From the NCBI GenBank assembly GCA_964405655.1, contig CAYOOO010000002.1, forward strand, positions 2,022-66,021: 64,000 bases of DNA, written 5' to 3'. The notes beneath the pieces were generated by a model, which was not told where the DNA came from, did no database searches, and was given only the letters and a program-made list of their open reading frames with translations. The stretch comes from an uncultured Gammaproteobacteria bacterium (GTDB lineage: Bacteria > Patescibacteriota > Microgenomatia > Daviesbacterales > UBA10151). The translations under genes were made by a program, and so were the position numbers. Each line of letters begins with the position of its first letter. Within the stretch, counting starts at the first letter, position 1. Positions 1,784 through 29,334 of the stretch are shown here, one piece after another.

Positions 1784-4198
1784 ATGAAAAAATATCTACC
1801 AAAGGAGATAGAAAGTAAATGGCAAAGAAAATGGGCAAAGGATAAACTTTATTTTACTGACTTGTCAAACTGGAAAAATAAATACTACGTTTTAGTAGAA
1901 CTTCCTTATACCTCAGGTGACTTGCATATAGGTCATTGGTTTACCTTCAGCAAAGGTGATATTTTAGCCAGATTTAAAAGAATGCAAGGATTTAATGTTG
2001 TTTTTCCCAACGGTTATGACACCTTTGGCCTTCCAGCGGAGAATGCAGCTATAAAAAACAAGATGCATCCTAAGGACTGGACGTATGCAAATATCAAAAA
2101 GATGAGAATACAATTTGAGACTATGGGAACAGTTATTGACTGGACTAAAACTGCTATAACATGCGACCCTGACTACTATAAGTGGAACCAATGGGTTTTT
2201 CTAAAGATGTTTGAAAAAGGGATTGCCTATAAAGGTAAAAATATCTCAAACTGGTGCCCTTCATGTCAAACTGTATTAGCAGATGAAAACGTTGAAAATG
2301 GAAAATGTTGGAGGTGCGGGACTGAGGTTGACAAAAAAGAAATAGAACAATGGTTCTTTAAAATAACCCAGTATGCAGACGAGTTAATCTGGAAAGATCA
2401 AGACGATTACGATTGGCCAAAGTCATTAAAAGATGCTCAAAACCAGTGGATAGGTAGAAGCGAAGGTGCAGAGATAGAGTTCAGAGTAGAAAATTCAGAA
2501 TCCAGGATTAAAGTGTTTACTGTCTTTCCGGAAACAATTTATGGAGTTACCTATATGGTTTTAGCTCCAGAACATCCCCTGGTTAATGAGCTTACAACTA
2601 AGCAGCAGAAAGATTTAGTATCAAAATATAAAGAAATAGCTCAAAAGAAGACAGAACAAGAGAGAAAAGAAGGACAGAAAGACAAAACAGGTGTCTTTAC
2701 AGGTTCTCACTGTATAAACCCTGTTAATAATAATAAAATTCCTATCTGGATAGCTGATTATGTGATTTCATCTTATGGTACTGGTGCAGTGATGGGTGTA
2801 CCGGCTTCAGACCATAGGGATTTTGCTTTTGCAAAAAAATATGGCTTGGAAATAATTCGAGTAATTGGAAAAGATAAAAGCGATGATGGTCCGGTTAGGA
2901 CTGAAGAAGAAGTTTTAGAAGAAGGAGTCTTGGTAAATTCAGGACAGTTTAGCCTTTTACAAAGTCCTGAACCAGCTAAGGAAAGAATCATTAAGTATTT
3001 AGAGAAAGAAGGCTATGGTAAAAGAACCATTCAATATCATCTCCACGATTGGTCTGTATCTCGTCAAAGGTATTGGGGCACTCCAATACCGATAATTTAC
3101 TGCGATAGCTGTGGAGTAGTATCTGTACCCTATGAGGATTTACCTGTAGTTTTACCAGATAAAGTTGATTATGCTCCAAAAGGTAAAGCTCCACTGGCTA
3201 CAGCTGAAGAATGGGTCAGAGTCAAATGTCCTAGATGTGGCAAAGAAGCTAAAAGAGAAGTTGAAACAATGGATGGATTTGTAGATAACTCCTGGTATTT
3301 TTTTAGATATCTAGATCCCAATAATAAAAAAGAGATCTTTGATAAAAAAATTATTTCAAATTGGATGCCAATTCAGATTTATATAGGAGGAGGGGAGCAT
3401 ACTTATGGTCATGCTCTTTATTCAAGGTTTTTTAATAAGTTTTTTAAAGATATTGGGCTGGTTAGCTTTGATGAATATACCATAAAAAGGATCCATCATG
3501 GTGTTATTTTGGGACCTGACAGCCATAGAATGAGTAAATCAAGAGGAAATGTTGTCAATCCAGATGACCAAGCCTCAGACTATGGTTCAGATGCTGTTAG
3601 AATCTACCTTTCTTTTCTAGGTCCTTTCGATATTGTCACACCTTGGAACCCAAGTGGTATCAATGGGATTTATCATTTTATCCAGCGGGTTTGTGCTCTT
3701 TTTGATAAGGTTTCAGATATAGAGCCTAGTAATAAAGACCTAACATTTATGCATAAAACAATCAAAAGAGTAACTAAAGATTTAGAAGAACTAGCCAACA
3801 ATACTGCTATAGCAGCCTTAATGGAGTGGTTAAACTATTTGAGCAGAAAAGACAAGATCTCAAAAGAGGAATATAAAAATTATTTGAAATTACTTGCTCC
3901 CTTTGCTCCCCATATTACTGAGGAACTATGGGAAATGTTAGGAGAAAAATATTCCATTCATCAGACTGCTTGGCCAGAGGTAGATGAAAACTATCTTAAA
4001 GAAGTAACCTTTGTTATACCTGTTCAAGTCAATGGAAAGGTTAGAGATACCTTAAATATATCAGCCGAAGAAGCTTGGGATGAAGGAAAAGTAGAGAAAG
4101 CGGCTCTGGAACTTTCTAAAGTCAAGAAATTTGTTGATGGGAAAAAGGTGATCAAAAGAGTTTATATACCAGGTAAAATTTTAAATCTAGTAGTCTAA
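1784..4198 (+). CDS. leuS: leucyl-tRNA synthetase
   Basis: 804 aa. HIGH motif (DLHIGHWF) and KMSKS motif (RMSKSRGN). N-terminus and editing-domain spacing typical of LeuRS. Confidence 0.93.
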   Translation: MKKYLPKEIESKWQRKWAKDKLYFTDLSNWKNKYYVLVELPYTSGDLHIGHWFTFSKGDILARFKRMQGFNVVFPNGYDTFGLPAENAAIKNKMHPKDWTYANIKKMRIQFETMGTVIDWTKTAITCDPDYYKWNQWVFLKMFEKGIAYKGKNISNWCPSCQTVLADENVENGKCWRCGTEVDKKEIEQWFFKITQYADELIWKDQDDYDWPKSLKDAQNQWIGRSEGAEIEFRVENSESRIKVFTVFPETIYGVTYMVLAPEHPLVNELTTKQQKDLVSKYKEIAQKKTEQERKEGQKDKTGVFTGSHCINPVNNNKIPIWIADYVISSYGTGAVMGVPASDHRDFAFAKKYGLEIIRVIGKDKSDDGPVRTEEEVLEEGVLVNSGQFSLLQSPEPAKERIIKYLEKEGYGKRTIQYHLHDWSVSRQRYWGTPIPIIYCDSCGVVSVPYEDLPVVLPDKVDYAPKGKAPLATAEEWVRVKCPRCGKEAKREVETMDGFVDNSWYFFRYLDPNNKKEIFDKKIISNWMPIQIYIGGGEHTYGHALYSRFFNKFFKDIGLVSFDEYTIKRIHHGVILGPDSHRMSKSRGNVVNPDDQASDYGSDAVRIYLSFLGPFDIVTPWNPSGINGIYHFIQRVCALFDKVSDIEPSNKDLTFMHKTIKRVTKDLEELANNTAIAALMEWLNYLSRKDKISKEEYKNYLKLLAPFAPHITEELWEMLGEKYSIHQTAWPEVDENYLKEVTFVIPVQVNGKVRDTLNISAEEAWDEGKVEKAALELSKVKKFVDGKKVIKRVYIPGKILNLVV

Positions 4199-6652: not shown

Positions 6653-8134
6653 ATGTTAGTCGAAACATATCAAAATAAAATATACGAGAGAGAAAAAGAC
6701 AGGTTTCTGGCTGGCTTTTCCAAACCCGGAGTTGATACGGGAAAAATTATTATAGGCTTTATAGGACAAAATCAGGATCAGGTTCATATTGTCGATTTGC
6801 CAACTCAAGAAGCTTTGCTTGTAATAGCTGATATTAGAGCTGGCCAAAAAGCAGTAGCTGCCTCCAGAACACTAGCCTTTTCCTATGCGCAGAAGTTCTT
6901 GTTTGATAAAGGGGTGTCTGTGCCAGATTTAAAGGCTAGAATGGCTGGTGCTGCCTTCCAGACAATGATGTTTAATATAGGAGTTAAACATCCATTTTTT
7001 TCAGAAGAAACAAAGAATGGCCAAACTAAAGAAGCTAAAAGGTTAACTCCAGAAGGAAGAATACTAGCTGAGGCTATGTTTACGAAGGCCCATCCGAAGG
7101 GGGTTGATAGATTATTGCCTAGTATACTAACTGAGGTAGCCAAACCAGCAAATAACAGTTTCTTTGGCATATTTGGTAAATACTTAGGTTCAACTACCTC
7201 ACCCCAGTTACAATCTGAACTAGAAGCTAGGTTTGGTTGGTATCAGGCAGCTCATTTACCACTAGAACTTGTTTTAGTTTTGAGTTTAGAGAAATTCCCT
7301 TGTCCTCTAAAATCCTTTGATGGCCTGCCTGATCTGGCAGAAGTTGGTCAACTGCTTAAGTTCAAAAAGCTGCAAGAGGAACTTAGGGATTTACATCCAG
7401 CTGGGATAAAACTAATAGTGGTTAATGAATCACCAGCCTTTTTAGGTTTCTCTTCGAATCCTGAGGTAAAAACCGCTGAAATAGAGGCATATAAGAACAA
7501 ATTTTTAGAGCTTGCACAAAAACTGGGTATAGGCGGAAGCGTCCAAGTTGAGGATATGGAAGCCCTGTTTAGAGGTTCTAAAAGGGAAGAGTTTGATACT
7601 ATTATATCCCAAGCCAAATTGACTGAAGAAGAATTAGATCTTCACAGAAGAATTGAGTTTACCAACGTAGATTTAACCAAGCTTTTCAGCCCTGAAATGA
7701 TAGCTTCATTGTCCATAGCTGATTTACTGGCAATCTATAGCGGTAGATACTCGATTGCAGGTTTTGATCAACCTCAAAGAGCTCTAAACCCGGCTCAATC
7801 GAGTCTAGTTTCAGCTATAGAATCACAGGCAACTTTTCAAGCAGAAGCTTTTAAAGCTTATTGCATAGCCAGGTCAGCTGTTCAAAACAAATATTTGGCA
7901 GAATTTGGAGTCACCAGAGGCCCATATATTAAAATAAACTGCATTGAAAAATCTGACCAGGCATATTTTCCCTTAAGTGATAGCAGGGTACTACCTCAGC
8001 ACGGAGTAGGGGTATTAACCACTAAGGGAAAAATTAAAGTCATCCCTCTAATTGTTCCAGTGTTTGAAGCTGAGAAGTATTTATTAGTTGAAGATCCAGA
8101 TTTAGAAATTAAATACTTAAAGGAGGTGGCATAA
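6653..8134 (+). CDS. hypothetical protein (493 aa); C-terminal half possibly PvcA/Dit1-like
   Basis: Long ORF. Its stop overlaps the next start (ATGA). The downstream half weakly resembles the next gene. Confidence 0.5.
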   Translation: MLVETYQNKIYEREKDRFLAGFSKPGVDTGKIIIGFIGQNQDQVHIVDLPTQEALLVIADIRAGQKAVAASRTLAFSYAQKFLFDKGVSVPDLKARMAGAAFQTMMFNIGVKHPFFSEETKNGQTKEAKRLTPEGRILAEAMFTKAHPKGVDRLLPSILTEVAKPANNSFFGIFGKYLGSTTSPQLQSELEARFGWYQAAHLPLELVLVLSLEKFPCPLKSFDGLPDLAEVGQLLKFKKLQEELRDLHPAGIKLIVVNESPAFLGFSSNPEVKTAEIEAYKNKFLELAQKLGIGGSVQVEDMEALFRGSKREEFDTIISQAKLTEEELDLHRRIEFTNVDLTKLFSPEMIASLSIADLLAIYSGRYSIAGFDQPQRALNPAQSSLVSAIESQATFQAEAFKAYCIARSAVQNKYLAEFGVTRGPYIKINCIEKSDQAYFPLSDSRVLPQHGVGVLTTKGKIKVIPLIVPVFEAEKYLLVEDPDLEIKYLKEVA

Positions 8135-9246
8135 TGAAATTAATTAATAAAGAGATAGCAGCTTATATCCCTTTTAAGCTTAGTCTTAAAAGCAAAGGTA
8201 AAATTAAACCATTCTTAAAGCCCAAACTTGTTTCTCAAGAAACTATTAAAAAGATCTTGCCTCAGCTTAAAGTTAGCTTGCCTAAAGAAGGTTCTATTTC
8301 AGAACAAGTATTTTCAATTTTAGTTAACCCTGAAATTAGATACGGGAATCTAGACTATCTGAATAAAAGTAAAAGCTATCTTTTATCTTTAATCAACAAA
8401 CTGCTTAAAGAAAAAAAACCTCTGATATTCCATATTGCGGGTTTTCCTCACAAAATGCCAAATCCTTTCTATACAACTCAAGTTGAGCCTGATTTAGGGG
8501 AATTAATGTTTCTTTGGAGGCTTGAGTCTATTGCCAGAATTTTGGAGCAAATCTACCCCTACGGGGTCAAAATAGTAATTTGTTTAGAGGGAACAGTGTT
8601 TCATTATCTGTCGATGATCTCTAGGCTTGAAGCTCAAAATTATCAGGAATTAGTTAAGAATTTAGCTTTAACTTATGATTTTGAGCACCTAAAGTTTTTA
8701 GATTTAGTTGAAACTCACTCTCAAACCAAGAATTGGGATGAGCAAGTTAGGATCAAAAGCCTAAAACTCTATCAACTCTATCAAAAAGGGGATAAGGAAG
8801 TAGTAGCCCAGCTAAAAAGGACTTGGCCTGTCATATTTACAACTCTAAATATGAGATCCTTACAGAGTAAGGAAATTATTTCTATGTTTAAAGCTGCCAA
8901 TAAAGGCTTTAAAGAGACAGTTAAAAGTAAATACCATCACCTAGCTTTATTTGCTTTTGAATCTAGCTTGACCTATCTTGCCTACAACGAGATCAAAAGA
9001 GAGTCAAAAGTAATTGAGAAAGCTATTTCGGCTGGTATAAAGATGTCAGTGGTTCCAAAGCTTAATGCATTTGGAATCTGGTGGGTTCAAAAAGATGAGT
9101 ACAAACTGCCTTATTATGGTTTGCCTTTAGTAAAAGATAACTCCTTTAAAGCTATAGAATACGCTTTTGATGCAAAAAGAATTTATAATCTTCAACCAGT
9201 TTTAATAAAAGGGTCTAGGCAGCCTTTCTTTTTCGAGGTAGTGTAA
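8134..9246 (+). CDS. hypothetical protein (370 aa); possible PvcA/Dit1-family (isonitrile-synthase-like)
   Basis: HIAGFPHKMPNPF ... PDLGE ... YGVKIVICLEGTVFHYL resembles my recollection of the GFP-K ... SDG-VF signature of the PvcA/DIT1 family. Not verified. Confidence 0.45.
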   Translation: MKLINKEIAAYIPFKLSLKSKGKIKPFLKPKLVSQETIKKILPQLKVSLPKEGSISEQVFSILVNPEIRYGNLDYLNKSKSYLLSLINKLLKEKKPLIFHIAGFPHKMPNPFYTTQVEPDLGELMFLWRLESIARILEQIYPYGVKIVICLEGTVFHYLSMISRLEAQNYQELVKNLALTYDFEHLKFLDLVETHSQTKNWDEQVRIKSLKLYQLYQKGDKEVVAQLKRTWPVIFTTLNMRSLQSKEIISMFKAANKGFKETVKSKYHHLALFAFESSLTYLAYNEIKRESKVIEKAISAGIKMSVVPKLNAFGIWWVQKDEYKLPYYGLPLVKDNSFKAIEYAFDAKRIYNLQPVLIKGSRQPFFFEVV

Positions 9247-15153: not shown

Positions 15154-15308
15154 ATATCCTTTGATCTAGTTTGTATATCTTGTGACCGGTTTATAAGACT
15201 GGTAGAATCCTGTTATCGAAATTTTCCTTGTCTCCGCCAATGGCGGAGCAAGCGATCTCGCAAACTATTATGGTGCTTCGCACCTACAAGAAAGGAGGTT
15301 TGCTGCGA

Positions 15309-16325
15309 TTGTTTAATTTCTCCAAAAGAATCGGGATAGATTTAGGGACAGCAAATTCGCTAGTTTATGTTGTAGGTGAAGGGATTGTTATGAATGAGCC
15401 AAGCGTGGTGGCTGTCTCAACAATTGATAACCGGGTGTTAGCAGTTGGTAATGAAGCTAAAGAAATGCTTGGTAGGACTCCTGGAAATATTGTTGCCACC
15501 CGACCGTTAAGGGATGGTGTTATTGCCGATTATGTGACAACTGAAGCCATGCTTCGCTACTTTATAGACAGCATCTGCGGCTCCAGTAGAATCTTTAAGC
15601 CAGAAGTTATGGTTTGTGTTCCTGCAGGAGTGACTTCAGTTGAAAGAAGGGCAGTGATGGATGCAACTTTATCAGCTGGAGCAAAGATGTCTTATCTGAT
15701 TGATGAACCTTTGGCTGCTGCAATTGGTGCAAATATACCTATTGCTAACCCATCAGGCAATATGATTGTTGATATTGGTGGTGGTACTACTGAGGCAGCA
15801 GTGATCTGTTTAGGTGGAGTGGTGGTTCATAGTAGTGTCAGAGTAGGAGGAAATAAGATTGATGAATCTATTGTTCAGTATTTAAGGAAAAAGTATGGAC
15901 TAATTATTGGAGAGCACCAATCTGAACAAGTTAAAATTCAGATTGGTAATAGTCTTAAACCTGATTCAACAGAAGTTAAACAGATGGAAGTTAGGGGAAG
16001 AGATGGTGCAACAGGGCTACCAAGAACTGTAGTTTTAAATTCAGCTGAGATATGTGAGGCTATTCAAGATCCGCTGAATAAAATCGTTGGTGCAGTTAAA
16101 GGTGTTTTAGAACAAACACCACCTGAATTGGCCTCCGATATCATTGATAAAGGAATAGTTATGTCAGGTGGAACTTCAATGCTGACAAATTTAGATAAAC
16201 TGATGACTCAATCTACAGGCGTACCTTGTCATATCTCTGAAAACCCGCTACTATCAGTAGTTTTGGGTACAGGTTTAGCTTTAGAAAATTTAGATCTTTA
16301 CAAGAGAAGTGTTAGTAGAAAATAA
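15309..16325 (+). CDS. mreB: rod shape-determining protein MreB (paralog 1)
   Basis: IGIDLGTANS, DIGGGTTE and other actin-fold motifs. Start moved to TTG at 15309, 10 nt after the AAAGGAGG ribosome-binding site. The track ORF begins at 15228, inside a 5' UTR that contains a GC-rich palindrome. Confidence 0.85.
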   Translation: MFNFSKRIGIDLGTANSLVYVVGEGIVMNEPSVVAVSTIDNRVLAVGNEAKEMLGRTPGNIVATRPLRDGVIADYVTTEAMLRYFIDSICGSSRIFKPEVMVCVPAGVTSVERRAVMDATLSAGAKMSYLIDEPLAAAIGANIPIANPSGNMIVDIGGGTTEAAVICLGGVVVHSSVRVGGNKIDESIVQYLRKKYGLIIGEHQSEQVKIQIGNSLKPDSTEVKQMEVRGRDGATGLPRTVVLNSAEICEAIQDPLNKIVGAVKGVLEQTPPELASDIIDKGIVMSGGTSMLTNLDKLMTQSTGVPCHISENPLLSVVLGTGLALENLDLYKRSVSRK

Positions 16326-19531: not shown

Positions 19532-19738
19532 TTAAACAGTCTTTTGGGTTATACCCAAAAGCCATAAAACAGCTTCCTTCTTATAACGCCTATCTCCTCT
19601 AGAATTAATCCTAATTGCCGGGAGCTTGCCTCTTTTTCCCCATCTTTTGATTGTGAGGGGAGAAACTCTAAGTACTTCTGCAACTTCTTTAACTGTTAAT
19701 AGATCAGGGAGATTCTCTAAGGAGATTTTGTCAGCCAT
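19532..19738 (-). CDS. excisionase-family helix-turn-helix DNA-binding protein
   Basis: 68 aa. LTVKEVAEVLRVSPLTIKRW matches the Xis/MerR-like HTH_17 pattern. Confidence 0.6.
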   Translation of the reverse strand: MADKISLENLPDLLTVKEVAEVLRVSPLTIKRWGKRGKLPAIRINSRGDRRYKKEAVLWLLGITQKTV

Positions 19739-19785
19739 ACTTACTCTTTGTATATCATAAAGATTCAGAGAGTGTCAAGATATCA

Positions 19786-20011
19786 ATTAGGCTTTAATTA
19801 GTCTATAGATTAAGGCGTTAAGTGCCCAATTAGAGGCTGAATCAAGATCATCTTTCCAGATGTAATCAGATATTTCATCTTTACTGATGGCTTTACCTAG
19901 ATTCTTTTTAACGAGTCTAAGTAACTTAGCCTCTTTAGCTGGTATGTTTAACTTAATATATGATTTGATATATTCTTCGCTATCCTTAGGACAACAAATC
20001 GCTCCAGCGAC
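19786..20011 (-). pseudogene. remnant of an OmpR/PhoB-type winged-helix (trans_reg_C) domain; no start codon
   Basis: Minus-strand frame reads ... IPAKEAKLLRLVKKNLGKAISKDEISDYIWKDD ... ALNALIYRLIKA*. This is the classic LT-KE-LL ... G-vS ... I ... VWG motif. The frame is bounded upstream by TGA and has no ATG/GTG/TTG, so the ORF track did not report it. Confidence 0.45.
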
Positions 20012-20052
20012 TCATTGTACTAATATTAGAAAGGTATTATATTAAATCTAGG

Positions 20053-20607
20053 ATGGTTAAGGGTAAAGTTAAGACTAAAGATGTACTGAAAATTATTGGT
20101 GTTGGTGGATTAGTAGTGGCTTCAATTATTATGCCTAATTTACCTATGGCTTTGATGAAAGTTCAGAAAGCTTGGAAAAATATTAAAAAAGAGGATTTAG
20201 GCAGAATTCTAAAAAGATTAGAAAGACAACAAGTGATCTCTATCAGGGAAAAAGGAGATATGATAGCAGTAGAGATTACTGAAAAAGGCAAACGCAGGTT
20301 ACTGGAGTATGATTTCGAAGGTATCGAGATTAAAAACAAAAAAAGAGACGGAAGGTTTAGACTAGTTGTATTTGATATTCCTGAGAATAAGAAAAATGCC
20401 AGGGATATGTTTAGAAGGAAGCTTATTCAGCTTGGATTTATCAAATTACAAGAAAGTGTGTTTGCATCTGCATACCCTTGTAAAAAAGAGATAGATTTTC
20501 TCTGCCACTACCTGGAGATTTCAGATTATGTAACTATCGCTTCAGTAGATAAAATAGAACGAGGGGAGCAGCTAGTATTTAAAGAATATTTTTATCATGA
20601 CAATTAA
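20053..20607 (+). CDS. membrane-anchored winged-helix protein fused to a Cas2/VapD-like domain (orphan)
   Basis: N-terminal hydrophobic segment (IIGVGGLVVASIIMPNLPMALM), then a wHTH-like segment (ILKRLERQQVISIREKGDMIAVEITEKGKRRL). The C-terminal ~85 aa (RFRLVVFDIPENKKNARDMFRRKLIQLGFIKLQESVFAS ... DYVTIASVD) match the Cas2 core pattern (VLVxYDI ... RR ... G-R-Q-SVFEC). Confidence 0.5.
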   Translation: MVKGKVKTKDVLKIIGVGGLVVASIIMPNLPMALMKVQKAWKNIKKEDLGRILKRLERQQVISIREKGDMIAVEITEKGKRRLLEYDFEGIEIKNKKRDGRFRLVVFDIPENKKNARDMFRRKLIQLGFIKLQESVFASAYPCKKEIDFLCHYLEISDYVTIASVDKIERGEQLVFKEYFYHDN

Positions 20608-20752
20608 TCGCGGCCGCGACTGAATGTACTGAAAATTATTAGTGGAATTCATTTTATATAAGATTGCAGCTTTGGAGGATCCAACTCTTTTTTCTGTATC
20701 ACACCTGCAATTTGGGGCGGAGATAACTTTGACAGGACTCAAAAAGAAAAAA

Positions 20753-20805: not shown

Positions 20806-21429
20806 TTACTGTAACTCAACGGTAGCTCCAGCTGCAGTCAGCTTGGTTTTTGCTTCTTCTGCGGTTTGCTTGTTAACACCCTCCATAACTGGTTTAGGTG
20901 CTGATTCTACTAGGTCTTTTGCTTCTTTTAAGCCTAAAGTCGGAACTAATTCTCTAACTGCTTTAATAGCTCCAATCTTGTTTGCTCCTGCTGAAGCTAA
21001 AATTACATTAAAGGTAGTTTGTTCACTAGCAGCTTCTTCAGCTCCTCCAGCTTGCCCTGCACCGACTGGTGCGGCGGCGACTGGTGCTTGAGCTGTAACA
21101 CCAAACCTATCTTCAAGCGCATGGACTAAATCTGCTAGCTCTAAAACTGACAGTTTTTCAATCTGCTCTATGATTTTTTCTAATTCCTTTGAGATAGGTT
21201 TTACAGCTTTTTTCTGGGGAGCCGGCTCGTCGGTGGTCGAAGCACCGCTCGGCTGACTAGACTTTGGTTCTGGAGTAGTTTCCTTAGCCTCGCTACGGGT
21301 TTGTTGAGAGTCGGAGTCAGTTAAATTTCCTTCTTCTGGAACACTCTCAACTGCACCAGTTGCTTCTGACTCACTCGACTTCGCCGTCTCTTTTTGTTTT
21401 TGATCTTGATCGTCTGCCAATCTAAACAC
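20806..21429 (-). CDS. rplL: 50S ribosomal protein L7/L12 with an ~80-aa acidic N-terminal extension
   Basis: Canonical L7/L12 from [24 protein letters not shown] ... onward. The GTG start overlaps the rplJ stop (GTGTTTAG). The extension is S/T/E/P-rich. Confidence 0.85.
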
Positions 21430-21943
21430 CCCCTCTCATTACTCGAATTTGATCTAGCGCGTATACTAAATTTCTTAAATTAGCCTGTAATACTCCAACT
21501 ATGCCGTAAAGTGGTGCACCTAAGGATCCAACAATGTTAGCTCTTAACTCCTCTTTTGATGGTAGGGAAGCAAGTTTTTGGACTATCACATTATCGATTA
21601 ACTCACCATTAAAGATTCCTAACTTGACTGATCCAATTTGAGCATCTTTGATAGCTTTAGTTAATATTTTGATAGGGGTTATTTCATCTTCATAAGAAAA
21701 TAGGGTTGCAATGGGACCCTGGTAGTTTGTAGGGGGTAGTTTGTAGGGGGTAGAGGCTAGTTTAAGCAGACTGTTTTTGGTAATAGTAAACTCTGCTCCA
21801 ACTTCTCTCAGCTTGCTTCTGAGGTCTGATAATTGAGACATGGTTAAACCTTTATAGTCTACAAAAACCACTGACTTGGCCCTGTCAAGCTTATCAGTTA
21901 AACCTTTGACTATTTGTTCTTTTTGCGCTCTGGTTTTAGGCAT
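21422..21943 (-). CDS. rplJ: 50S ribosomal protein L10
   Basis: [19 protein letters not shown] ... matches L10. Start set at the ATG that follows the GAAGGAG ribosome-binding site. The track ORF extends 14 codons further upstream. Confidence 0.85.
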
Positions 21944-21975
21944 AAAAAAACTCCTTCTTCGAGGAGTTTGAGTAG
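21944..21975 (-). promoter_or_regulatory. rplJ leader hairpin that sequesters the ribosome-binding site, followed by a U-run (L10-leader-like)
   Basis: Minus-strand RNA reads AAACTCCTCGAAGAAGGAGTTTTTTTATG. The stem CTCCT/AGGAG contains the SD, and 7 U precede the start codon. Confidence 0.4.
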
Positions 21976-22128
21976 TATGTATCAAGTATTATGTATTAAG
22001 GGATTTTTGTTTTCCCATAATACTTACTACTTATCCCTTGATACTAATTTTCAACGCCTCGGTGGGATTTACCAATTCCTTGAACCCACTTTCTTAAGCT
22101 TTTAAAATTCTAATCTAGTTGATACAAT

Positions 22129-22467
22129 TTGTCAATGGCAACACTCATCATTACTAAAAAAGCAACTAAAGATCAGATTAAAAAGATGTCATATGAGTAT
22201 GGAAGTTATATTAAAGTAGTAGTAGATATTGAAAAGAGTATATTAGCAGGCGGAGCAGCCATGCATTATGATGAGGAGAGACTATTATTAGAATATGGTT
22301 CAAAACAGCAGAACCTTTGGGGTGGAGGAATAGATTTAGATACAGGTTCAATAGATTATAATTCCATGATTAATTTACGTCCTAATCAAAACAACCCTAG
22401 TAGAGAAATCGTCTCTTTAGAAATTAGAGAGAAGTTTGATAAAATTGTCAAGAGATTGCTAATATGA
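22129..22467 (+). CDS. hypothetical protein (112 aa)
   Basis: ORF whose stop overlaps the next start (ATGA). Conserved-looking core YIKVVVDIEKSILAGG ... NLWGGGIDL. Confidence 0.5.
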   Translation: MSMATLIITKKATKDQIKKMSYEYGSYIKVVVDIEKSILAGGAAMHYDEERLLLEYGSKQQNLWGGGIDLDTGSIDYNSMINLRPNQNNPSREIVSLEIREKFDKIVKRLLI

Positions 22468-22811
22468 AAAATATCCAGGTTACAACTAGTCGCTCCAGCG
22501 ACTCATTGTCCCCAGCTCAGCTTCAAATTTTAAATATCTCGGTTAATCTGGCGAGAATAGGTAACTGGGTGGCTGATTCTTATGAACAGAAAAAAGAATT
22601 GATAAATAAGTTTATTGAACAAACTGCTCAGATGATCTCTGATTTAGATAGTCAAAATAGCTCAAAAGAGTTCAAAACTATCTTAAGTAAGTTTAAGACT
22701 GAGTTTTATAAGCTCAAGGAAGAGCCTATCGATAAAACAAACAAACCTATTTGGGCAGAAAAAGCTTTAACGTGGGCTAATATCTTGCAACATAGAGCTA
22801 AACTAGCCTAA
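22464..22811 (+). CDS. hypothetical protein (115 aa)
   Basis: ORF coupled to the previous one. Its 5' end carries a copy of the locus-specific inverted-repeat motif, so the true start could be internal. Confidence 0.45.
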   Translation: MKNIQVTTSRSSDSLSPAQLQILNISVNLARIGNWVADSYEQKKELINKFIEQTAQMISDLDSQNSSKEFKTILSKFKTEFYKLKEEPIDKTNKPIWAEKALTWANILQHRAKLA

Positions 22812-23665
22812 AACTTAGGTACCCAGATCCAATAACCACTGCCGCCTGAGGCAGGTGGATCGCCTTCAGATCCGGTATTGGCAGGAACCTTGAGCTCAGC
22901 AGATTTGCTGGCAGGTGGAGTGGGTGAATACCAAGTACCAGAAGTTCCTGTTTTGCCCAGATTTTTGATTATAAAGCCAATATCAAAGCTGTTGATGGAG
23001 TTATCTAAGTTAAAATCAATTAATGGGTTCCATTTTTTTGAGGTTGGATTTGCTCCTAAAGCGCTTAGAGTAATATTGTAATCTAGGGTATTAATAGTAT
23101 TGTCCTCATTTAAGTCACCAGTTAGCAAATTAAGAGTATTTAAATCATTCACAGAGGGCTTAACAGTAAAGGCTGAGGCTGTGGCTATCTGCACACTACC
23201 TTTAAGGTAAGCTGTATAGGTTTGACTTTGAGTTAAACCTGCTAGAGACAGATTGGAGTACTCTCCTGAATCAGGTACATTAACAGTAAAAGAGAGAAGG
23301 TATTGAGGATTAGTAATGGGTTGTCCTTGGGCAATTCCTACGAATAACTTAGTAGCCTGTTTGTTTTTGGGTCTTCCTTCGAGGTTAATCTTAAACTTTA
23401 AGGTAGGTCCAAAGCTAATTTCAGCTGAGGAGCTAGCCAGAGAGGAAGATCCATCGCTACCGCCAGACTCTTTAAGTAAACTTTTTTTTAACTCATCAAT
23501 TGGGTTGGTTTTAGGAACTTCTTTAGGGGAGGTTTGAGGGAAGATACTTGTTGTTTTAGCTGCATTTTTTTGATTGATTCTTTTAGAGAGGATAAATGAG
23601 CCTGATGGGATCAGGATGATTAAAACTGCGATGACTATTAAGATTATCTTCTCTTTACCGCGCAT
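22808..23665 (-). CDS. secreted protein with dockerin-like calcium-binding repeats
   Basis: N-terminal signal/TM segment. C-terminus GDLNEDNTINTLDYN ... DFNLDNSINSFDIG fits the dockerin type I repeat pattern. Confidence 0.6.
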   Translation of the reverse strand: MRGKEKIILIVIAVLIILIPSGSFILSKRINQKNAAKTTSIFPQTSPKEVPKTNPIDELKKSLLKESGGSDGSSSLASSSAEISFGPTLKFKINLEGRPKNKQATKLFVGIAQGQPITNPQYLLSFTVNVPDSGEYSNLSLAGLTQSQTYTAYLKGSVQIATASAFTVKPSVNDLNTLNLLTGDLNEDNTINTLDYNITLSALGANPTSKKWNPLIDFNLDNSINSFDIGFIIKNLGKTGTSGTWYSPTPPASKSAELKVPANTGSEGDPPASGGSGYWIWVPKF

Positions 23666-23732
23666 TTTCCCTAACTTTACTATACTATGGAAAAGTTAAA
23701 AGTAAAAAGTGTAAAGTAAATTAAGTAGCAAA

Positions 23733-24788
23733 ATGAACTCTCTCCCCGCTCTAAAGAACGTGGTTTTGAGTTCTTGTCTAACAATGAGAGTACTTTCTTT
23801 AAAGAATCTAGTTAGGATTTTAATAAACAGCCTGATTGGTTTAATTTTAATCCTGATATGGTTGAAGCTGGTTAACCTTCAAGAAGTTTTAGACAAGATT
23901 TCACAAGTAAATCTCCTCTTTACCATACCTTTTATTATTCTATTTGCACTATCTTTTAATCTAAGGGCAATCAGGCTTAAGATACTGCTTTCTTCAGAAC
24001 AAAGTATCCCTTTATCTAACATAGTCTATCTGACTTCTCTTTCCCAGCTTTTAAGCTTTTTGATACCCTTAAGACTAGGGGAGTTAGCTAAAGCAGTTTA
24101 TCTGGGGGCTGAATATAAAATTAAGTTTTCCAAAGCCTTAATTTGGATTCTTTTAGACAGGTTTATAGATTTTTGGACAGTCTTAATAATATCTTTAGTT
24201 TTACTTATCTTTCTGCCTACCAACCTGCCCGAAAACTTAAAGCTTAGTTTATCTTTCCTTATTGTTCTGTCCAGCTTAGGGGGGATCTTTTTAATATTCT
24301 TCCCTAAATATTCCAAAAAACTTGCTGAAATCTTTGCGTTACTCTTAGTATTTAAGCCTGTTAAAAGTCTATTTTTAAAAGTTAGCTTCCATATTATTGA
24401 TACAGCCAGTTTTTTAAATAGGGGGTTAGTAGGCAGTATAAAATTAATTCTGATTACAATCTTAGTACTTATTTCAGATGCGCTGGCTTGGTGGGTACTA
24501 TTTGTAATTGTGTTTAAGACCCAAGCTGGCCTTTTGCCAGTGCTTTTAGGTTCACTTCTAAATACTTTAACTTACCTAATTCCTGCTGCTCCTGGGTATA
24601 TAGGAAGCGCTGAGGCAGCAGGACTAGCTGTTTTCCATTTTGGTTTGGGTTTTGATAAAACTTTGGTTTCAGCCATAACTGTTTTAAACCATGCCTTAAC
24701 TGTTTTTTGTGTTCTTTTTTATGGGCTAATCTCCCTTTACCTTCTTAAATTTGATTTGAGCTTAGTTTGGAAGAAACTAAAAAGATAA
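23733..24788 (+). CDS. UPF0104/flippase-like (MprF-type) polytopic membrane protein
   Basis: Multiple TM helices. N-terminal region typical of lysylphosphatidylglycerol-synthase TM-domain family proteins. Confidence 0.55.
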   Translation: MNSLPALKNVVLSSCLTMRVLSLKNLVRILINSLIGLILILIWLKLVNLQEVLDKISQVNLLFTIPFIILFALSFNLRAIRLKILLSSEQSIPLSNIVYLTSLSQLLSFLIPLRLGELAKAVYLGAEYKIKFSKALIWILLDRFIDFWTVLIISLVLLIFLPTNLPENLKLSLSFLIVLSSLGGIFLIFFPKYSKKLAEIFALLLVFKPVKSLFLKVSFHIIDTASFLNRGLVGSIKLILITILVLISDALAWWVLFVIVFKTQAGLLPVLLGSLLNTLTYLIPAAPGYIGSAEAAGLAVFHFGLGFDKTLVSAITVLNHALTVFCVLFYGLISLYLLKFDLSLVWKKLKR

Positions 24789-25984
24789 AAAGTATTATGA
24801 ATCAGGAATCAGAGAATAACTCCAAAGCCAGTCATACAGCAAAAAAAGCTGATGAGTTTGATGAACCCAGATTACCAGGCGAGGAAGCAGCTGCTTTTTT
24901 AAGGCAGGAAGGTTTCAAGAAGTATCAGCAGGAGCTTCAAGCCCGAGGAGCCCGCCATAAAAAACATGGCGAGGTTGCTAGAGGAATTACCGAGGCGCTA
25001 CAGACTCAAGAAATTGAAGATTACGAACCTTGTCATTTATCTGATGAAGCTAGAGAGAGAATATTGGAAAGAATCAATCAGGCAGCCAGAAAAGAACCTA
25101 CTCTAGAAGCCCAGCAACTTTGGGCAGAGCTCTACCTTTTTCTAAGGGACCACTCTGCTTTTTTTACAGAGTTATCTCATGGGACAACTGCTGAACTTTT
25201 TGATCAGATACTGGTTGAAGGTATCAAACCATATGCAGTTTTAAAGGATCAGGGTAAACTAAGATTTGGTGAGGGAGCCAGAGCAAGCCGTAGAACAAAG
25301 GAAAGAGGGTTAAACCAGATTCCTGCAGGGGTCGGATTGGGCGGTTTAGGCACAGCTATTGCCTATGCGGAATTCACTGCAGATGCAAGACAAAACGAGA
25401 GGTTACAAAATATCCTATCTTTACACAACAGGGCGCTTAGAGATTCCAAGGATCCTGATCTTACTGAAGAATCCAGAAGATTTTACCAGGAACAGTTAGA
25501 GTTTTATAAAGAGGAGCTAAGAACCCCTCCTTCAAAAGGAAAATGGGAATTTCCGGTTGTGCTTGGTTTTGATCATTCTCAAGAAGTTAGCTCGTTTGAT
25601 AATCCTAAGATTGGTTGGGTTGTTGCCTGGCCAGAAGTATATAAAGGTGGGGAATTTAAAGTCCTTTCTTCTTTAAAAAAGGAGCGGGATTTTAAGTCTG
25701 AGGCTAGGCTTGATAGTGAGGTTTATTTACCTCCTGGGGATGAAGTACCATCTGAGGCAATAACTTTAATTGCTTGCCCAAAAGATAAAATGGAAATGGT
25801 AAGAAGAGTAGCAAGGGAGTTTAGAGGAGAAGATATATCTTTTATCTCACTTGAGGCTTTAGAACTTTTACCTAAAATAGGTGTTGATCGGGTTGACTCA
25901 GGCTACAAAACTGCCCGATCCACTACATCAGGAGTAGTAATCAGTGAAAGCCTCAGAAGAACTCGAGAAGACTTACTATATTGA
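24767..25984 (+). CDS. hypothetical protein (405 aa), Arg/Glu-rich
   Basis: Long ORF. Its end overlaps the rplA 3' end (convergent). Composition resembles other R-rich hypothetical proteins in the window. Confidence 0.5.
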   Translation: MEETKKIKSIMNQESENNSKASHTAKKADEFDEPRLPGEEAAAFLRQEGFKKYQQELQARGARHKKHGEVARGITEALQTQEIEDYEPCHLSDEARERILERINQAARKEPTLEAQQLWAELYLFLRDHSAFFTELSHGTTAELFDQILVEGIKPYAVLKDQGKLRFGEGARASRRTKERGLNQIPAGVGLGGLGTAIAYAEFTADARQNERLQNILSLHNRALRDSKDPDLTEESRRFYQEQLEFYKEELRTPPSKGKWEFPVVLGFDHSQEVSSFDNPKIGWVVAWPEVYKGGEFKVLSSLKKERDFKSEARLDSEVYLPPGDEVPSEAITLIACPKDKMEMVRRVAREFRGEDISFISLEALELLPKIGVDRVDSGYKTARSTTSGVVISESLRRTREDLLY

Positions 25985-26902
25985 GGATAGGTCGACTTTA
26001 ACTCCTGGACCCAAGGTAGGTGAGAGGGTGACTTTTTTTATTCTGGATTTTCCCAAGGTTATTAGTAAGGTTTTAACATTGGCAGTAAGTTCCTCAGAAG
26101 GCTGGTTAAGTTTTCCCAAAGCTAGATGAATAATTGGAGCTTTTGGCTCACTTTTATATTCTGTTTTACCACCTTGGAAATTTTCAACAGCTTTTTTCAA
26201 TCCGTCAGCTGACGGACTGGTAATAGTTCCATTCTTGGGATTTGGCATCAAACCTTTAGGTCCTAAGACTTTGGCAACTTTAGCCAGTTTACTCATCCAC
26301 AAAGGTGTAGTAATAACCATATCAAAGTCTATTTTACCCTTACTTATCTCCTCTAATGTTTCATCTGTACCAACAATATCTGCTCCAGACTCTTGGGCAT
26401 CTTTGCCAAAAGCCAGAATCCTTAACTTCTTTCCTTCTGAGTAAGGTAGAGAAACTAAACCTCTAAGACCAGTTGTTTGAGTATTGATATGAATTTCTAA
26501 AGAACCTGTGAACTTTGAGTAGGAAAGTTTTTTTGAGAGTTCAACAGCTTCAGGAATAGAGTAGTGCTTACCTCTTTCAAATTCCTCTACAGTTTTTTGG
26601 TATTTTTTAGAACGCTTTCTAGGCTGTCCTTGCTTTTTTTGTTTGGGCTTCTCGGAAGCAGTTTTAGTTGCTGATGGAGCTTGAGTAACCGAGCCGCCCA
26701 CTTTCTGCTGGGTATCTTCTATTTGAACTTCTTGATCCTTAGTAAGCTCAACTGCGCCAACTGCTTTATCTGATTCAGACTTTGCTTTCTTTAAAGCTTG
26801 ATCTCGCTCAATATTTGTTGCCAGAACTTTTTTAGGAGCTTTCTTTTTTGGTTCCTCAGCTGCTACTGAGTCATCAATTGTTTTAATCTTAGTTTTTCCC
26901 AT
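25976..26902 (-). CDS. rplA: 50S ribosomal protein L1 with an ~95-aa Lys/Glu-rich N-terminal extension
   Basis: Core from KKYQKTVEEFERGKHYSIPEAVELSKK ... to the end matches L1. The upstream in-frame extension is lysine-rich. Confidence 0.85.
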   Translation of the reverse strand: MGKTKIKTIDDSVAAEEPKKKAPKKVLATNIERDQALKKAKSESDKAVGAVELTKDQEVQIEDTQQKVGGSVTQAPSATKTASEKPKQKKQGQPRKRSKKYQKTVEEFERGKHYSIPEAVELSKKLSYSKFTGSLEIHINTQTTGLRGLVSLPYSEGKKLRILAFGKDAQESGADIVGTDETLEEISKGKIDFDMVITTPLWMSKLAKVAKVLGPKGLMPNPKNGTITSPSADGLKKAVENFQGGKTEYKSEPKAPIIHLALGKLNQPSEELTANVKTLLITLGKSRIKKVTLSPTLGPGVKVDLSSI

Positions 26903-26907
26903 GGTTT

Positions 26908-27336
26908 TTAACTTGAAACTTTAACCCCCATTGATCTGGCAGTGCCTTCTACTATTTTCATGGCAGCCTCCAAATCACTAGCGTTTAGATCCGGCATTTT
27001 AGCTTTGGCAATATCTTCTACCTGACTTTTGGATAAAGTTCCGGCACTTTCATGGCCGCTTTTTCCGGCTCCTTTTTCTACTCCTAAAGCCTTTTTAATC
27101 ATTTCAGCCACAGGTGGTTCTTTGGTAATAAAGCTAAATGTTCTATCTTCAAAAACTGTGATTACAACTGGTAGGATATTGCCTTGTTTTTCTTTAGTCT
27201 TCTCATTAAAGGCCTTAACAAAGTCCATTATAGGCAAGCCATGTTGACCCAAAGCTGGGCCAACAGGAGGAGCGGCAGTTGCTGTACCTGCAGGAATATT
27301 TAGTTTTATAAATGTTTTTACCTTTTTGTTTGCCAT
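26908..27336 (-). CDS. rplK: 50S ribosomal protein L11
   Basis: [33 protein letters not shown] is the L11 N-terminal signature. Confidence 0.92.
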
Positions 27337-27438
27337 ATAAATAATTTAAAACATTTACTCAGGCCTTTAGGCCGCTGTATGTTTTAATCTTTTTTGCTGC
27401 CATAAGTTTTGCAATTATATGTAAATTTGAATTCTATC

Positions 27439-27762
27439 TCAAGCATCTTGTTGTTCCAAGAAAACCTGGTGCGCTTGAAAGCGTACTTCCATAAACCTAA
27501 CACCACTTCTTCTTATAGAAGCCATGAACTCTTGATTTGTTTGGCCATTAAGTCTTGCATTGCAATTCAGACAAATACTTGGCAGGTCAGATCTATAAGC
27601 CTTTAAACCTATTGCAGCCTTGTCTATCTCTTTTGCTGAAACTACTCTTATTAGGTCGTCTGCTTCTGTAGAAAATAAAGTATAGACATGGCCTGCTAAA
27701 TTTCTAGCTTTCTCGTTCCCTGGACAGGGATATGCTACAAATTCGTATTCCGACAAACTCAT
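27439..27762 (-). CDS. hypothetical protein (107 aa) inserted between nusG and rplK
   Basis: Its start lies 3 nt after the nusG stop. CPG ... CLNC cysteines. No family recognised. Confidence 0.5.
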   Translation of the reverse strand: MSLSEYEFVAYPCPGNEKARNLAGHVYTLFSTEADDLIRVVSAKEIDKAAIGLKAYRSDLPSICLNCNARLNGQTNQEFMASIRRSGVRFMEVRFQAHQVFLEQQDA

Positions 27763-27764
27763 TT

Positions 27765-28580
27765 TTAAAGTTTAGTTATCTGCAAAAAGTCTAGCTCCAC
27801 AGGTGTTTCTCTACCAAAGATGGAAACTAAGACTCTGACCTTGCCTTTTTCCTTATCAACTGTATCAACTTTGCCTATAAATTCTGAAAAAGGACCATCA
27901 ATAATTTTGACTGTGTCATTTGGTAAGAAAACATCTTTAAAAGTAGCAGGAGCACCCTGGCTCATGAAGGTCACAATAGACTTAACCTCTGATTCAGGGA
28001 TAGAGGTAGGTTTGTTACCAATTCCTACAAAGGAGGTAACACCTGGGGTGGTTCTTACAGCCAGCCAGGAGGTATCATCTAAGATCATCTTAACCAAGAT
28101 ATAGCCTGGGAAGATTTTTTCTTTAATCTGCTCCTTTTTACCTGCTCTAATCTCAATTTTGTCTTGAGTTGGGACTAAGATATCTAAAATTTTATGCTCC
28201 AAGTGTTCAGATTCAATTTTCTGTTTTAGATTAGCTAAAACTTTGTTCTCATGACCAGAGTAAGTATGAACCACATACCACTTAGCTTTATCAGACTCGC
28301 TTGATGGAGAAGAAGGTGCTGATCGGGTTGGGGTGGTAGGCTCATCTGTTTCTTGCTCATCGTTGTCCATGGAAGCTCCTGCTTCAGCGGGTTCTTGGTC
28401 TGTGGCCGATTCGTCGATTTGTTCCTCTTTACTATCAATCTGCTCTTCAGCTTTTGTTCCTTGTTCAGGAACTTCTGGCTGCTCAGCTTCGCTAATTGTT
28501 TTGCCTGATTCAGACTCAGCATCTTTTAGAGCTTCATCTGTTTGTGTATTTTGTTTTTGATCGTTGCTATTATCTGCCAT
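27765..28580 (-). CDS. nusG: transcription antiterminator NusG with an ~95-aa acidic N-terminal extension
   Basis: NGN and KOW core (KWYVVHTYSGHENKV ... GKVRVLVSIFGRETPVELDF). The extension is D/E/Q/S-rich. Confidence 0.88.
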   Translation of the reverse strand: MADNSNDQKQNTQTDEALKDAESESGKTISEAEQPEVPEQGTKAEEQIDSKEEQIDESATDQEPAEAGASMDNDEQETDEPTTPTRSAPSSPSSESDKAKWYVVHTYSGHENKVLANLKQKIESEHLEHKILDILVPTQDKIEIRAGKKEQIKEKIFPGYILVKMILDDTSWLAVRTTPGVTSFVGIGNKPTSIPESEVKSIVTFMSQGAPATFKDVFLPNDTVKIIDGPFSEFIGKVDTVDKEKGKVRVLVSIFGRETPVELDFLQITKL

Positions 28581-28667
28581 ATTTACCTTTTTTCTCCAAT
28601 CAGTCTCCGCCAGCTGGCGGATCCTGTTGGCGGAATCGATTTTTCTTCAAATACGATTAAGTTTTAA

Positions 28668-28853
28668 TTACCTGTTGATTATCAAGTCAGTAAGTTGAGT
28701 CAACAAGTAGTCGATTCCACCAATAAAAAAGCCTACAGTAATGGTAACAATAACAACCATTATTGTAAGCTTAATTGTCTGTTGCCTAGAAGGCCAGACA
28801 ACTTTTGATAATTCTACCCTAACTTCTTTTAAAAAATCAAGTGCTTTCTTCAT
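28668..28853 (-). CDS. secE: preprotein translocase subunit SecE
   Basis: 61 aa with a single TM helix. N-terminus ... VRVELSKVVWPSRQQ ... is typical of SecE. Confidence 0.8.
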   Translation of the reverse strand: MKKALDFLKEVRVELSKVVWPSRQQTIKLTIMVVIVTITVGFFIGGIDYLLTQLTDLIINR

Positions 28854-28926
28854 AGTTTAATGATTGTAAATCATATCATATTGAACCTCAAGTTCCTAAG
28901 ATGTATATTGCAGGTGTTTAAAGTTT

Positions 28927-29334
28927 ATGCACAAACATTTAGCGATATTCTCAAAAGATGCTATAAAGCAGATATTTTCCGGTAAAAAAAGCTGGGAAAG
29001 CAGGTTTTCGCAAAAGAAGATTGCCCCGTTTGCTACTGTCTCAGTGGGAGACATAGTCTTTATCAAGCCTCCAGGAGAGGATATTCTAGGTCAATTTAGG
29101 GTTAAGAAGGTGATTTACTTTGAAGGACTTGATGATAAAGATTGGGAGGTGATTAAAGCCTATTTTACTAATAGTCTTTCCTTTGGTACTAAAAGAAAAG
29201 ATAAAGATTACTTCACTAGTAAAAAAAGTGCTAAATTTGGAACACTGCTTGCCATAGATAGAGTAGAGCAGTTTATTACATCTCCAGTTAAAATTCCCAA
29301 AAAGGATCTTAGAGGCTGGGTAGTGTTAGATTAG
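28927..29334 (+). CDS. ASCH-domain (PUA-like) protein
   Basis: FSGKKSWESRF ... ATVSVGDIVFIK matches the ASCH domain pattern. Confidence 0.55.
   Translation: MHKHLAIFSKDAIKQIFSGKKSWESRFSQKKIAPFATVSVGDIVFIKPPGEDILGQFRVKKVIYFEGLDDKDWEVIKAYFTNSLSFGTKRKDKDYFTSKKSAKFGTLLAIDRVEQFITSPVKIPKKDLRGWVVLD

Follow-up and report, generated by a model that had tools for sequence, protein, structure and literature searches.

PaaX, a phenylacetyl-CoA-responsive repressor (PDB 8A39, 3L09 and 3KFW; Pfam PaaX_N, PaaX_M and PaaX_C), is the best profile and structural match to a 184-aa protein encoded at 20053–20607 (+) of a stretch of Daviesbacterales DNA (contig CAYOOO010000002.1, assembly GCA_964405655.1), whose full 64 kb are referred to here as the window. 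Both proteins have the same domain order, a winged helix followed by a Cas2-like domain. In PaaX, the central region is described as a dimerisation motif and lies between the winged helix-turn-helix (wHTH) and a five-helix C-terminal domain (PMC9493321). The dimer binds a long palindrome whose half-sites are far apart (TGATTC-N27-GAATCA), and PaaX represses its own promoter (PMC9493321). Autoregulated winged-helix repressors of the MarR/PadR type have a palindrome over their own promoter in common with the locus described here. In the Cas1–Cas2 complex, the Cas2 dimer lies along duplex DNA. A different parallel is found in repetitive extragenic palindromes (REPs) and the associated tyrosine transposases (RAYTs), for which Nunvar et al. 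gave as hallmarks cognate palindromes on either side of the gene, co-evolution and the presence of further, dispersed copies (PMC2817692).

We compared the window gene, its relatives and the palindromes that bracket them with these systems. On balance, the evidence inclines us towards a sequence-specific, dimeric, palindrome-binding and autoregulated protein of the PaaX-core type. Binding of the palindromes, dimerisation through the Cas2-like domain and repression of its own promoter are all properties that we infer for this protein.

Domain architecture and structural comparison with PaaX

The open reading frame (ORF) begins with ATG, ends with TAA at 20605–20607 and encodes a winged helix and a PaaX_M/Cas2-like domain. 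Its product is identical to a protein of a Ca. Daviesbacteria metagenome-assembled genome (MAG; GCA_016176395.1) that NCBI names 'CRISPR-associated endonuclease Cas2', while one homolog bears the JGI name 'DNA-binding transcriptional regulator PaaX'. The best Pfam match was PF20803 PaaX_M ('PaaX central Cas2-like domain'; E = 4.4e-19, 68.8 bits), spanning residues 96–170 and profile positions 2–76 of 83, and the same domain was found in 73/73 diverse family members. Two Cas2 models also passed their thresholds, PF09827 CRISPR_Cas2 with 25.2 bits (cut-off 23.8; residues 103–139, model positions 3–36 of 74) and NCBIfam TIGR01573 cas2 with 34.3 bits (cut-off 24.5; residues 101–139, model positions 1–40 of 96). 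These cover the first β-α-β unit alone and are outscored by PaaX_M by 44 bits; in PADLOC, Cas2 models were the sole matches, again over the first β-α-β. The full-length PaaX model TIGR02277 reached 30.5 bits, well under its cut-off of 264.55. No PaaX_C match was detected in the 184-aa protein, whose chain ends 14 residues past the M domain, and no member of the diverse set matched Pfam PaaX_N, the N-terminal domain matching generic wHTH models alone.

An AlphaFold2 model built from 71 diverse relatives (mean predicted local distance difference test, pLDDT, 75.8) placed residues 100–170 in a β-α-β-β-α-β ferredoxin-like domain with pLDDT >90. Together with the profile match and conservation, it defines the PaaX_M/Cas2-like domain as residues 96–170 (20338–20562, +), bearing the family motif WDGKWRxVxFDIP (here RDGRFRLVVFDIP), R117, Q133-x-S135 and C143. 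The modelled winged helix comprises a helix at 46–58, a hairpin at 62–75 and a helix at 77–89; from the model and the structural matches, the predicted recognition helix (46–58) and β-hairpin wing (62–75) are encoded at 20188–20277 (+). In a Foldseek search against the PDB, E. coli PaaX (8A39) ranked first (E = 2.4e-4; 177 aligned columns, nearly the whole protein), whereas Cas2 structures matched the C-domain alone and F93, PadR and AspA winged helices the N-domain alone. Aligned by hhalign, the family profile and E. coli PaaX match at 93.7% probability over the region that runs from helix 3 through the M domain; both have the WDGKW entry into strand 1.

Conservation within the Cas2-like domain separates the family from PaaX. 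D108 (codon 20374–20376, +), within V-V-F-D-I, aligns with the conserved Asp of solved Cas2 structures (FD in 6JHZ; VYD in 3EXC) and is retained in 143/144 divergent members, as is S135 (143/144), with Q133 in 135/144. F107-D108-I-P110 and Q133-x-S135-V are nearly invariant, whereas the same place reads ...LLLLSEGLD... in E. coli PaaX and ...MLIVTSIG... in M. tuberculosis Rv0674, with Glu and Thr, respectively, at the position of D108. Unlike PaaX, which has lost them, the family keeps the Cas2-type F-D-I-P and Q-x-S-V motifs; it also differs in lacking a PaaX_C effector domain, a PaaX_N match and nearby paa genes, and in its hydrophobic N-terminal segment, its mainly Patescibacterial distribution, its several paralogs per genome and its palindromes on both sides of the gene. 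Compared with MarR/PadR-type repressors, dimerisation is proposed to occur via the Cas2-like domain rather than via N- and C-terminal helices, and the sites are much longer (28–58 bp), flank the gene on either side and also occur dispersed.

Collectively, as modelled, the protein is the N+M core of PaaX, a wHTH plus a Cas2-like domain, without PaaX_C. The Cas2 core pattern that a sequence-only reading of this DNA had recognized is therefore well beyond chance, as PF20803, PF09827, TIGR01573 and the aligned Asp attest, and the Cas2-type fold it expected was recovered in the C-domain, with PaaX 8A39 the best match over almost the full length. Its fusion of this domain to a wHTH likewise stands, in fold and in arrangement; the novelty of that fusion does not, since the architecture is known and corresponds to the N-terminal two-thirds of PaaX. 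The same reading had allowed that the C-terminal domain might be the ordinary PaaX one without a conserved acidic residue. PaaX_M is indeed the best match, yet the Asp is kept in all but one of the divergent members.

Relation to CRISPR–Cas

The NCBI annotation would make the protein a genuine CRISPR adaptation Cas2, with cas1 and an array elsewhere in the genome. In its favour, TIGR01573 and PF09827 score just over their cut-offs, and the family shares with Cas2 (3EXC, 5ZYF, 8IA4) the Asp at the end of strand 1, the basic helix 1 and the Q-x-S-V strand. Because the Cas2-type F-D-I-P and Q-x-S-V motifs are kept, the family passes Cas2 thresholds and is mis-named. Unlike Cas2, however, it matches the models over their first 40 positions alone, is fused to a winged helix and occurs as several paralogs per genome, and the window gene has no cas1, array or cas neighbourhood nearby. 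Tandem-repeat, direct-repeat and k-mer periodicity scans found no CRISPR array in the 64-kb window; no cas family was detected among 47 window ORFs scanned with Pfam, nor any cas gene in four Pfam-annotated homolog neighbourhoods. The absence of a cas gene or array from the window, already noted from sequence, was thus borne out.

Scanning 92 sequences (91 loci and the window) returned one array-adjacent case. In a Syntrophaceae MAG (L054; JACAEX010000020.1, positions 1–1034, at a contig end), an array of at least five copies of the 37-nt repeat GTTGCAGCAGAACTCCCTATGAAGAGGGAACTGAAAG, with ~37-nt spacers, adjoins the gene of a 211-aa family member, stopping 67 bp upstream of it. No array was found in L032 or L058, which are related to L054, and the adjacency was treated as incidental. 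The protein is not part of CRISPR–Cas, and its reading as a genuine CRISPR Cas2 is effectively refuted.

Palindromes at the window gene

Alignment of orthologs revealed a palindrome of consensus ACAA-N5-CGCT-NN-AGCG-N5-TTGT, conserved in otherwise unconserved upstream DNA. Three good sites occur in the window. Site 1 (ACAACAAATCGCTCCAGCGACTCATTGT; 19991–20018), the proposed operator, lies 35 bp before the ATG; site 2 (ACAATTAATCGCGGCCGCGACTGAATGT; 20600–20627) overlaps the last two codons and the stop codon; and site 3 (ACAACTAGTCGCTCCAGCGACTCATTGT; 22482–22509) lies 15 bp past the stop of a DUF5674 gene, inside a block of unrelated genes between rplA and rplJ. The right-hand 20 nt of site 3 are identical to those of site 1, including the unusual CGCTCCAGCG centre of this genome. 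Overall, identity among the three sites is 81% and extends to positions lacking self-complementarity, and the predicted hairpins are modest (z-scores of -1.8 to -4.8; -1.8 to -2.9 for sites 1 and 2). Because non-complementary positions are conserved and folding is modest, the window sites favour sequence recognition over structure. No U-tract follows site 2, and no Rfam family matches the palindromes, the sole Rfam match being a sub-threshold L10 leader.

A putative promoter (20015–20043, +) overlaps site 1: the -35-like TTGTAC (20015–20020) falls in the right arm of the palindrome and is separated by a 17-nt spacer from the -10-like TATATT (20038–20043), with the ATG 9 nt further on. Other genes of the Daviesbacteria/Levybacteria clade repeat this arrangement, and a -10-like hexamer starting 33 nt from the palindrome centre was found in 13/69 genes compared with 3 in the control.

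At the other end of the gene, the left arm of the downstream palindrome (GACAAT; window 20598–20607) encodes a conserved C-terminal Asp-Asn in the Daviesbacteria clade, and site and ORF end therefore constrain each other. Elsewhere in the window, a weaker palindrome of the same class (CACAAAAAGTTGCTATCGCATGATTTTGTG; 50055–50082), with three mismatches to the pattern, lies inside a formyltransferase ORF and may be due to chance.

Palindromes across the family and co-variation with the protein

All close orthologs have the upstream site, and nearly all orthologs carry the second copy at the gene's 3' end. A mismatch-tolerant palindrome scan of 1.15 Mb yielded 63 matches, against 2 in shuffled sequence. 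With at least 13 of 16 pairs formed, palindromes occurred in 38% of upstream and 45% of downstream flanks compared with 1.7% of 3,427 background windows; with at least 11 of 16, the proportions rose to 81% and 89%, against 16% of background. Most cores read GCTATAGC, GCGATCGC or ACGATCGT; the outer arms are particular to each lineage. Upstream and downstream copies of one locus are 75% identical over 36 nt, whereas identity between loci is 36%, and same-genome paralogs, themselves 30–80% identical, carry different palindromes.

Mantel permutation tests on 45 genes indicated that different parts of the palindrome track different parts of the protein. The outer arms corresponded more closely to the recognition helix (rho 0.24, p 0.0005) than to the wing, N-terminus or linker. 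The core followed the Cas2-like domain (rho 0.23, p 0.0005) and not the recognition helix, H3 (rho 0.07, p 0.11). The two flanking copies were direct in 24 cases and inverted in 13, with 22 ties; being near-palindromes, their orientation is poorly defined.

Upstream and downstream copies differ in their mismatches. In downstream copies, whose centres lie at a median of 34 nt from the end of the stop codon, sense-strand mismatches favour G.T over A.C (51 vs 21); no bias is seen in upstream copies (30 vs 34). Because the G.T bias is confined to the downstream side, the 3' copy is probably also an RNA hairpin in the transcript. Taken further, this asymmetry would suggest that the palindromes are transcript hairpins, 3'-end stabilisers or terminators, bound or cleaved via the Cas2-like domain in a post-transcriptional autoregulation. 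The tight placement of the downstream copy past the stop codon, stable predicted hairpins such as that of L042 (-37 kcal/mol, z-score -7.5) and reports that some Cas2 proteins are RNases would all fit such a role. The upstream copy, however, is unbiased and, in the Daviesbacteria/Levybacteria clade, lies upstream of or over the -35-like box, where it is probably not co-transcribed; the winged helix and the co-variation of outer arms with the recognition helix point to the reading of duplex DNA, the window hairpins of sites 1 and 2 are weak, and site 2 lacks a following U-tract. An RNA-level function as the main role is accordingly considered improbable.

Dispersed copies and comparison with REP/RAYT systems

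A metagenome scan with the exact Daviesbacteria-type site matched at least 120 contigs; the counts in this section are among the matches listed. Where a site could be judged, 24 adjoined a family gene and 53 were solo. Most solo sites (48/53) were intergenic, 26 between tandem, 11 between convergent and 8 between divergent genes, and no recurrent gene family was found beside them. The spacer was perfectly complementary in 36/102 non-adjacent sites, stems reached 29 bp, and some sites were perfect palindromes of 44–58 nt. In L151, identical imperfect copies lie 2.5 kb apart. With neither a recurrent neighbouring family nor a 5'-end bias, the solo sites listed form no coherent regulon, and a regulon was rejected.

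In L079 (3070–4228), a second pair of palindromes of the same class brackets a 161-aa ORF (3471–3956) that resembles, by eye, an NYN/LabA-type nuclease; sites within each pair are more alike than between pairs.

This distribution invites comparison with REP/RAYT systems. The family shares with them the two flanking copies, protein–palindrome co-evolution, paralog-specific repeat classes and dispersed intergenic copies, many after coding regions (PMC2817692, PMC3733652). The palindromes could then be short repeats that form hairpins when the DNA is single-stranded and are processed by the wHTH–Cas2-like protein, a metal-dependent nuclease or strand-transferase that would use the invariant Asp at the Cas2 metal site to nick, copy or maintain them; on a different scaffold, it would be an analogue of the RAYTs. 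The excess of solo over gene-adjacent copies, the complementary spacers and long stems, the paired copies in L151, the second pair around the NYN-like gene of L079 and the lack of promoter bias or regulon all agree with this possibility.

Several features set the family apart from those systems. Unlike RAYTs, the protein has no HUH or Tyr motifs of the IS200/IS605-like kind and belongs to a fold family different from that of the HUH/Y1 transposases; unlike REPs, inspection of the sites found no GTAG/CGTC tags, the flanking copies, so far as their orientation can be defined, are not consistently inverted and the apparent copy number is low, with the three good sites noted above in the 64-kb window. 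Moreover, sequence rather than a hairpin is conserved in the window, the paralogs are old, there is no sign of recent gene movement, and no members occur on viral contigs. Cas2 nuclease activity is also dispensable in CRISPR adaptation. We therefore regard a repeat-processing role as unlikely, although it is the alternative to which we give most weight. An active insertion sequence was ruled out on the identity range of same-genome paralogs and their different palindromes, and phage or mobile carriage on the absence of members from viral contigs.

Proposed mode of action

In the autoregulatory PaaX-core reading that we favour, the winged helix would read DNA and the Cas2-like (PaaX_M) ferredoxin domain would dimerise. 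On its cognate palindrome of 28–34 bp, a dimer would place the paired Cas2-like domains above the conserved centre, CGCT-NN-AGCG, and one recognition helix on each outer arm, ACAA or TTGT. Occupancy of the copy overlapping the -35-like box of its own promoter would lead to autorepression; the second copy, at the stop codon, would form a 3' boundary where the transcript probably folds into a hairpin; and further genomic copies, including 22482–22509, may also be occupied.

Some of the evidence weighs against this scheme. Many sites are perfect palindromes of 40–58 nt with complementary variable spacers, more typical of selected hairpins than of operators, and the solo copies show no promoter preference, with 77 3' ends and 69 5' ends of neighbouring ORFs beside them among the matches listed. 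The invariant Asp at the Cas2 metal-binding position, where PaaX has Glu or Thr, is unexplained by a purely scaffolding role. The N-terminal domain does not match Pfam PaaX_N, a generic promoter consensus scan did not call the putative promoter, which was assigned by eye, and the co-variation is weak (rho ~0.24) with shared phylogeny incompletely removed. The G.T bias of the downstream copies suggests a role at the RNA level.

Hydrophobic N-terminal segment and a possible toxin or defence role

Hydropathy identifies a conserved hydrophobic segment at residues 11–34 (VLKIIGVGGLVVASIIMPNLPMAL; 20083–20154, +), with a Kyte–Doolittle 19-residue maximum of 1.85. A comparable segment is present in 127/144 divergent members, in which G18 is frequent and P28 nearly invariant. 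AlphaFold2 folds the N-terminus as a helix at 8–18, a strand at 21–23 and a helix at 32–42, the α1-β1-α2 of the winged helix, with pLDDT <50 for residues 22–37, and wHTH-only structures align over 77–93 residues, which requires the N-terminal elements of the protein. In ~10% of members, the segment is polar and too short for a membrane span. Both of its flanks are basic, and ~20% of members carry highly charged N-terminal extensions of 45–100 aa that fit poorly with a simple N-out anchor. The model, the wHTH alignments, the polar variants, and the basic flanks and charged extensions thus argue against a simple single-pass anchor, and the segment is either membrane-associating, a buried oligomer interface or part of the winged-helix fold (helix 1/strand 1).

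These results bear on the suggestion made from sequence that the gene encodes a membrane-tethered, solo Cas2/VapD-fold nuclease acting as a toxin-like or defence module. The hydrophobic segment on which its anchor was based is real; the anchor itself is suggested by hydropathy, with the model, polar variants and extensions contrary to it. A Cas2-type fold with a conserved Asp, the prevalence of the hydrophobic segment and one homolog (L010) adjoining an AbiTii/DpnII-like gene are consistent with a toxin or defence role. Such a role is nevertheless highly improbable: no conserved partner, antitoxin or defence gene accompanies the family, and housekeeping genes surround it. The family is also ubiquitous and multi-copy, passes by vertical descent and has no representatives on viral contigs. 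Neither a defence nor a nuclease function is supported, whereas the regulatory, DNA-binding role proposed in the same reading is likely.

Taxonomic distribution and gene neighbourhood

An exhaustive search of 1.84 billion 50%-identity representatives recovered 3,279 clusters at E ≤ 1e-3, of which 1,326 passed E ≤ 1e-10. Most are 180–235 aa long, with alignments starting at about residue 5. Named source taxa were Daviesbacteria, Curtissbacteria, Paceibacterota, Campbellbacteria and Parcubacteria. When one genome per species was scanned, at least 591 relatives were confirmed; among the matches listed, nearly all came from Patescibacteria MAGs and a few from Syntrophaceae/Thermodesulfobacteriota MAGs. 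Several genomes encode two or three paralogs, some in tandem, and no second paralog was found in the 64-kb window. Within clades, family genes are vertically inherited in syntenic positions.

Gene neighbourhoods were not conserved across the family. Clustering of neighbour ORFs in 80 loci yielded no cluster present in more than nine loci, all housekeeping, and the contexts of the four Pfam-annotated homologs all differ, again with housekeeping neighbours. Neither the window nor the annotated neighbourhoods of homologs contain paa genes. The gene had been taken for an orphan, a description at odds with thousands of 50%-identity clusters across Patescibacteria, and a survey of its homologs' surroundings returned no recurrent neighbour. 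The accompanying observation that the locus is rearranged was correct, since rplKA and rplJL are ~4 kb apart, with five unrelated genes between them.

The family gene and rplL are convergently oriented. In the secE-nusG-rplKA-rplJL cluster (window 20806–29000), which is split, the five genes between rplA and rplJ encode the DUF5674 protein, a 115-aa protein of unknown function, a dockerin-domain protein, an LPG_synthase_TM protein and a 405-aa protein of unknown function; rplL is not followed by rpoBC. The longest rplL frame (20806–21429, -) encodes 207 aa with an acidic, Ser/Thr/Pro-rich, low-complexity N-terminal extension of ~78 aa, and its start is uncertain, gene calls giving 129 aa (L001) versus 207 aa (L002). 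The Rfam ribosomal protein L10 leader match mentioned above (21936–22116, -; 29.8 bits against a gathering threshold of 44, E = 0.035) sits upstream of rplJ, the expected place.

Three small DNA-binding ORFs cluster around 19532–20607. Beside the family gene, these include a 68-aa HTH_17/MerR-like gene (19532–19738, -) and an NCBI-annotated 70-aa frame (19787–19999, -) with a weak match to Trans_reg_C, an OmpR-type winged helix; the latter lacks an ATG, GTG or TTG start at the 5' end, and palindrome site 1 overlaps its opening codons. Farther away, two adjacent genes at 6653–9246 (+) match DIT1_PvcA (pyoverdine/dityrosine, isonitrile-synthase-type), which is unusual for a reduced Patescibacteria genome, and two MreB-like genes were observed (15228–16325 and 55556–56614, +), the second near mreC and a PBP2-type transpeptidase.

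Significance for Patescibacteria

The PaaX architecture is already known, and member sequences are public, though mis-named or unnamed. In the searchable literature, we found no description of the wHTH–Cas2-like family or of its palindrome-bracketed arrangement; a Patescibacteria-wide PaaX-core family, its retained Cas2 motifs and its paralog-specific, co-evolving palindromes, both bracketing and dispersed, are apparently undescribed. The label 'CRISPR-associated endonuclease Cas2' carried by many members is misleading and inflates the apparent CRISPR content of Patescibacteria genomes.

If the protein acts on its palindromes beyond binding them, it would connect a Cas2-fold protein to palindromic repeats outside CRISPR. 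In the rather doubtful case of a REP/RAYT-like system, a Cas2-fold protein would take the place of a tyrosine transposase in recognising and processing palindromic repeats of its own, and a relative of Cas2 would have a native link to such repeats that does not involve Cas1. This would be relevant to how the CRISPR adaptation module began to work with palindromic repeats, and the proteins would form a new class that maintains repeats in Patescibacteria.

In the reduced, regulator-poor genomes of these ultra-small bacteria, the family is among the most widespread small DNA-binding proteins, and none of its members has been studied. With each paralog carrying its own palindrome, co-varying with the recognition helix and the Cas2-like domain, it offers a ready-made and testable specificity code between protein and DNA.

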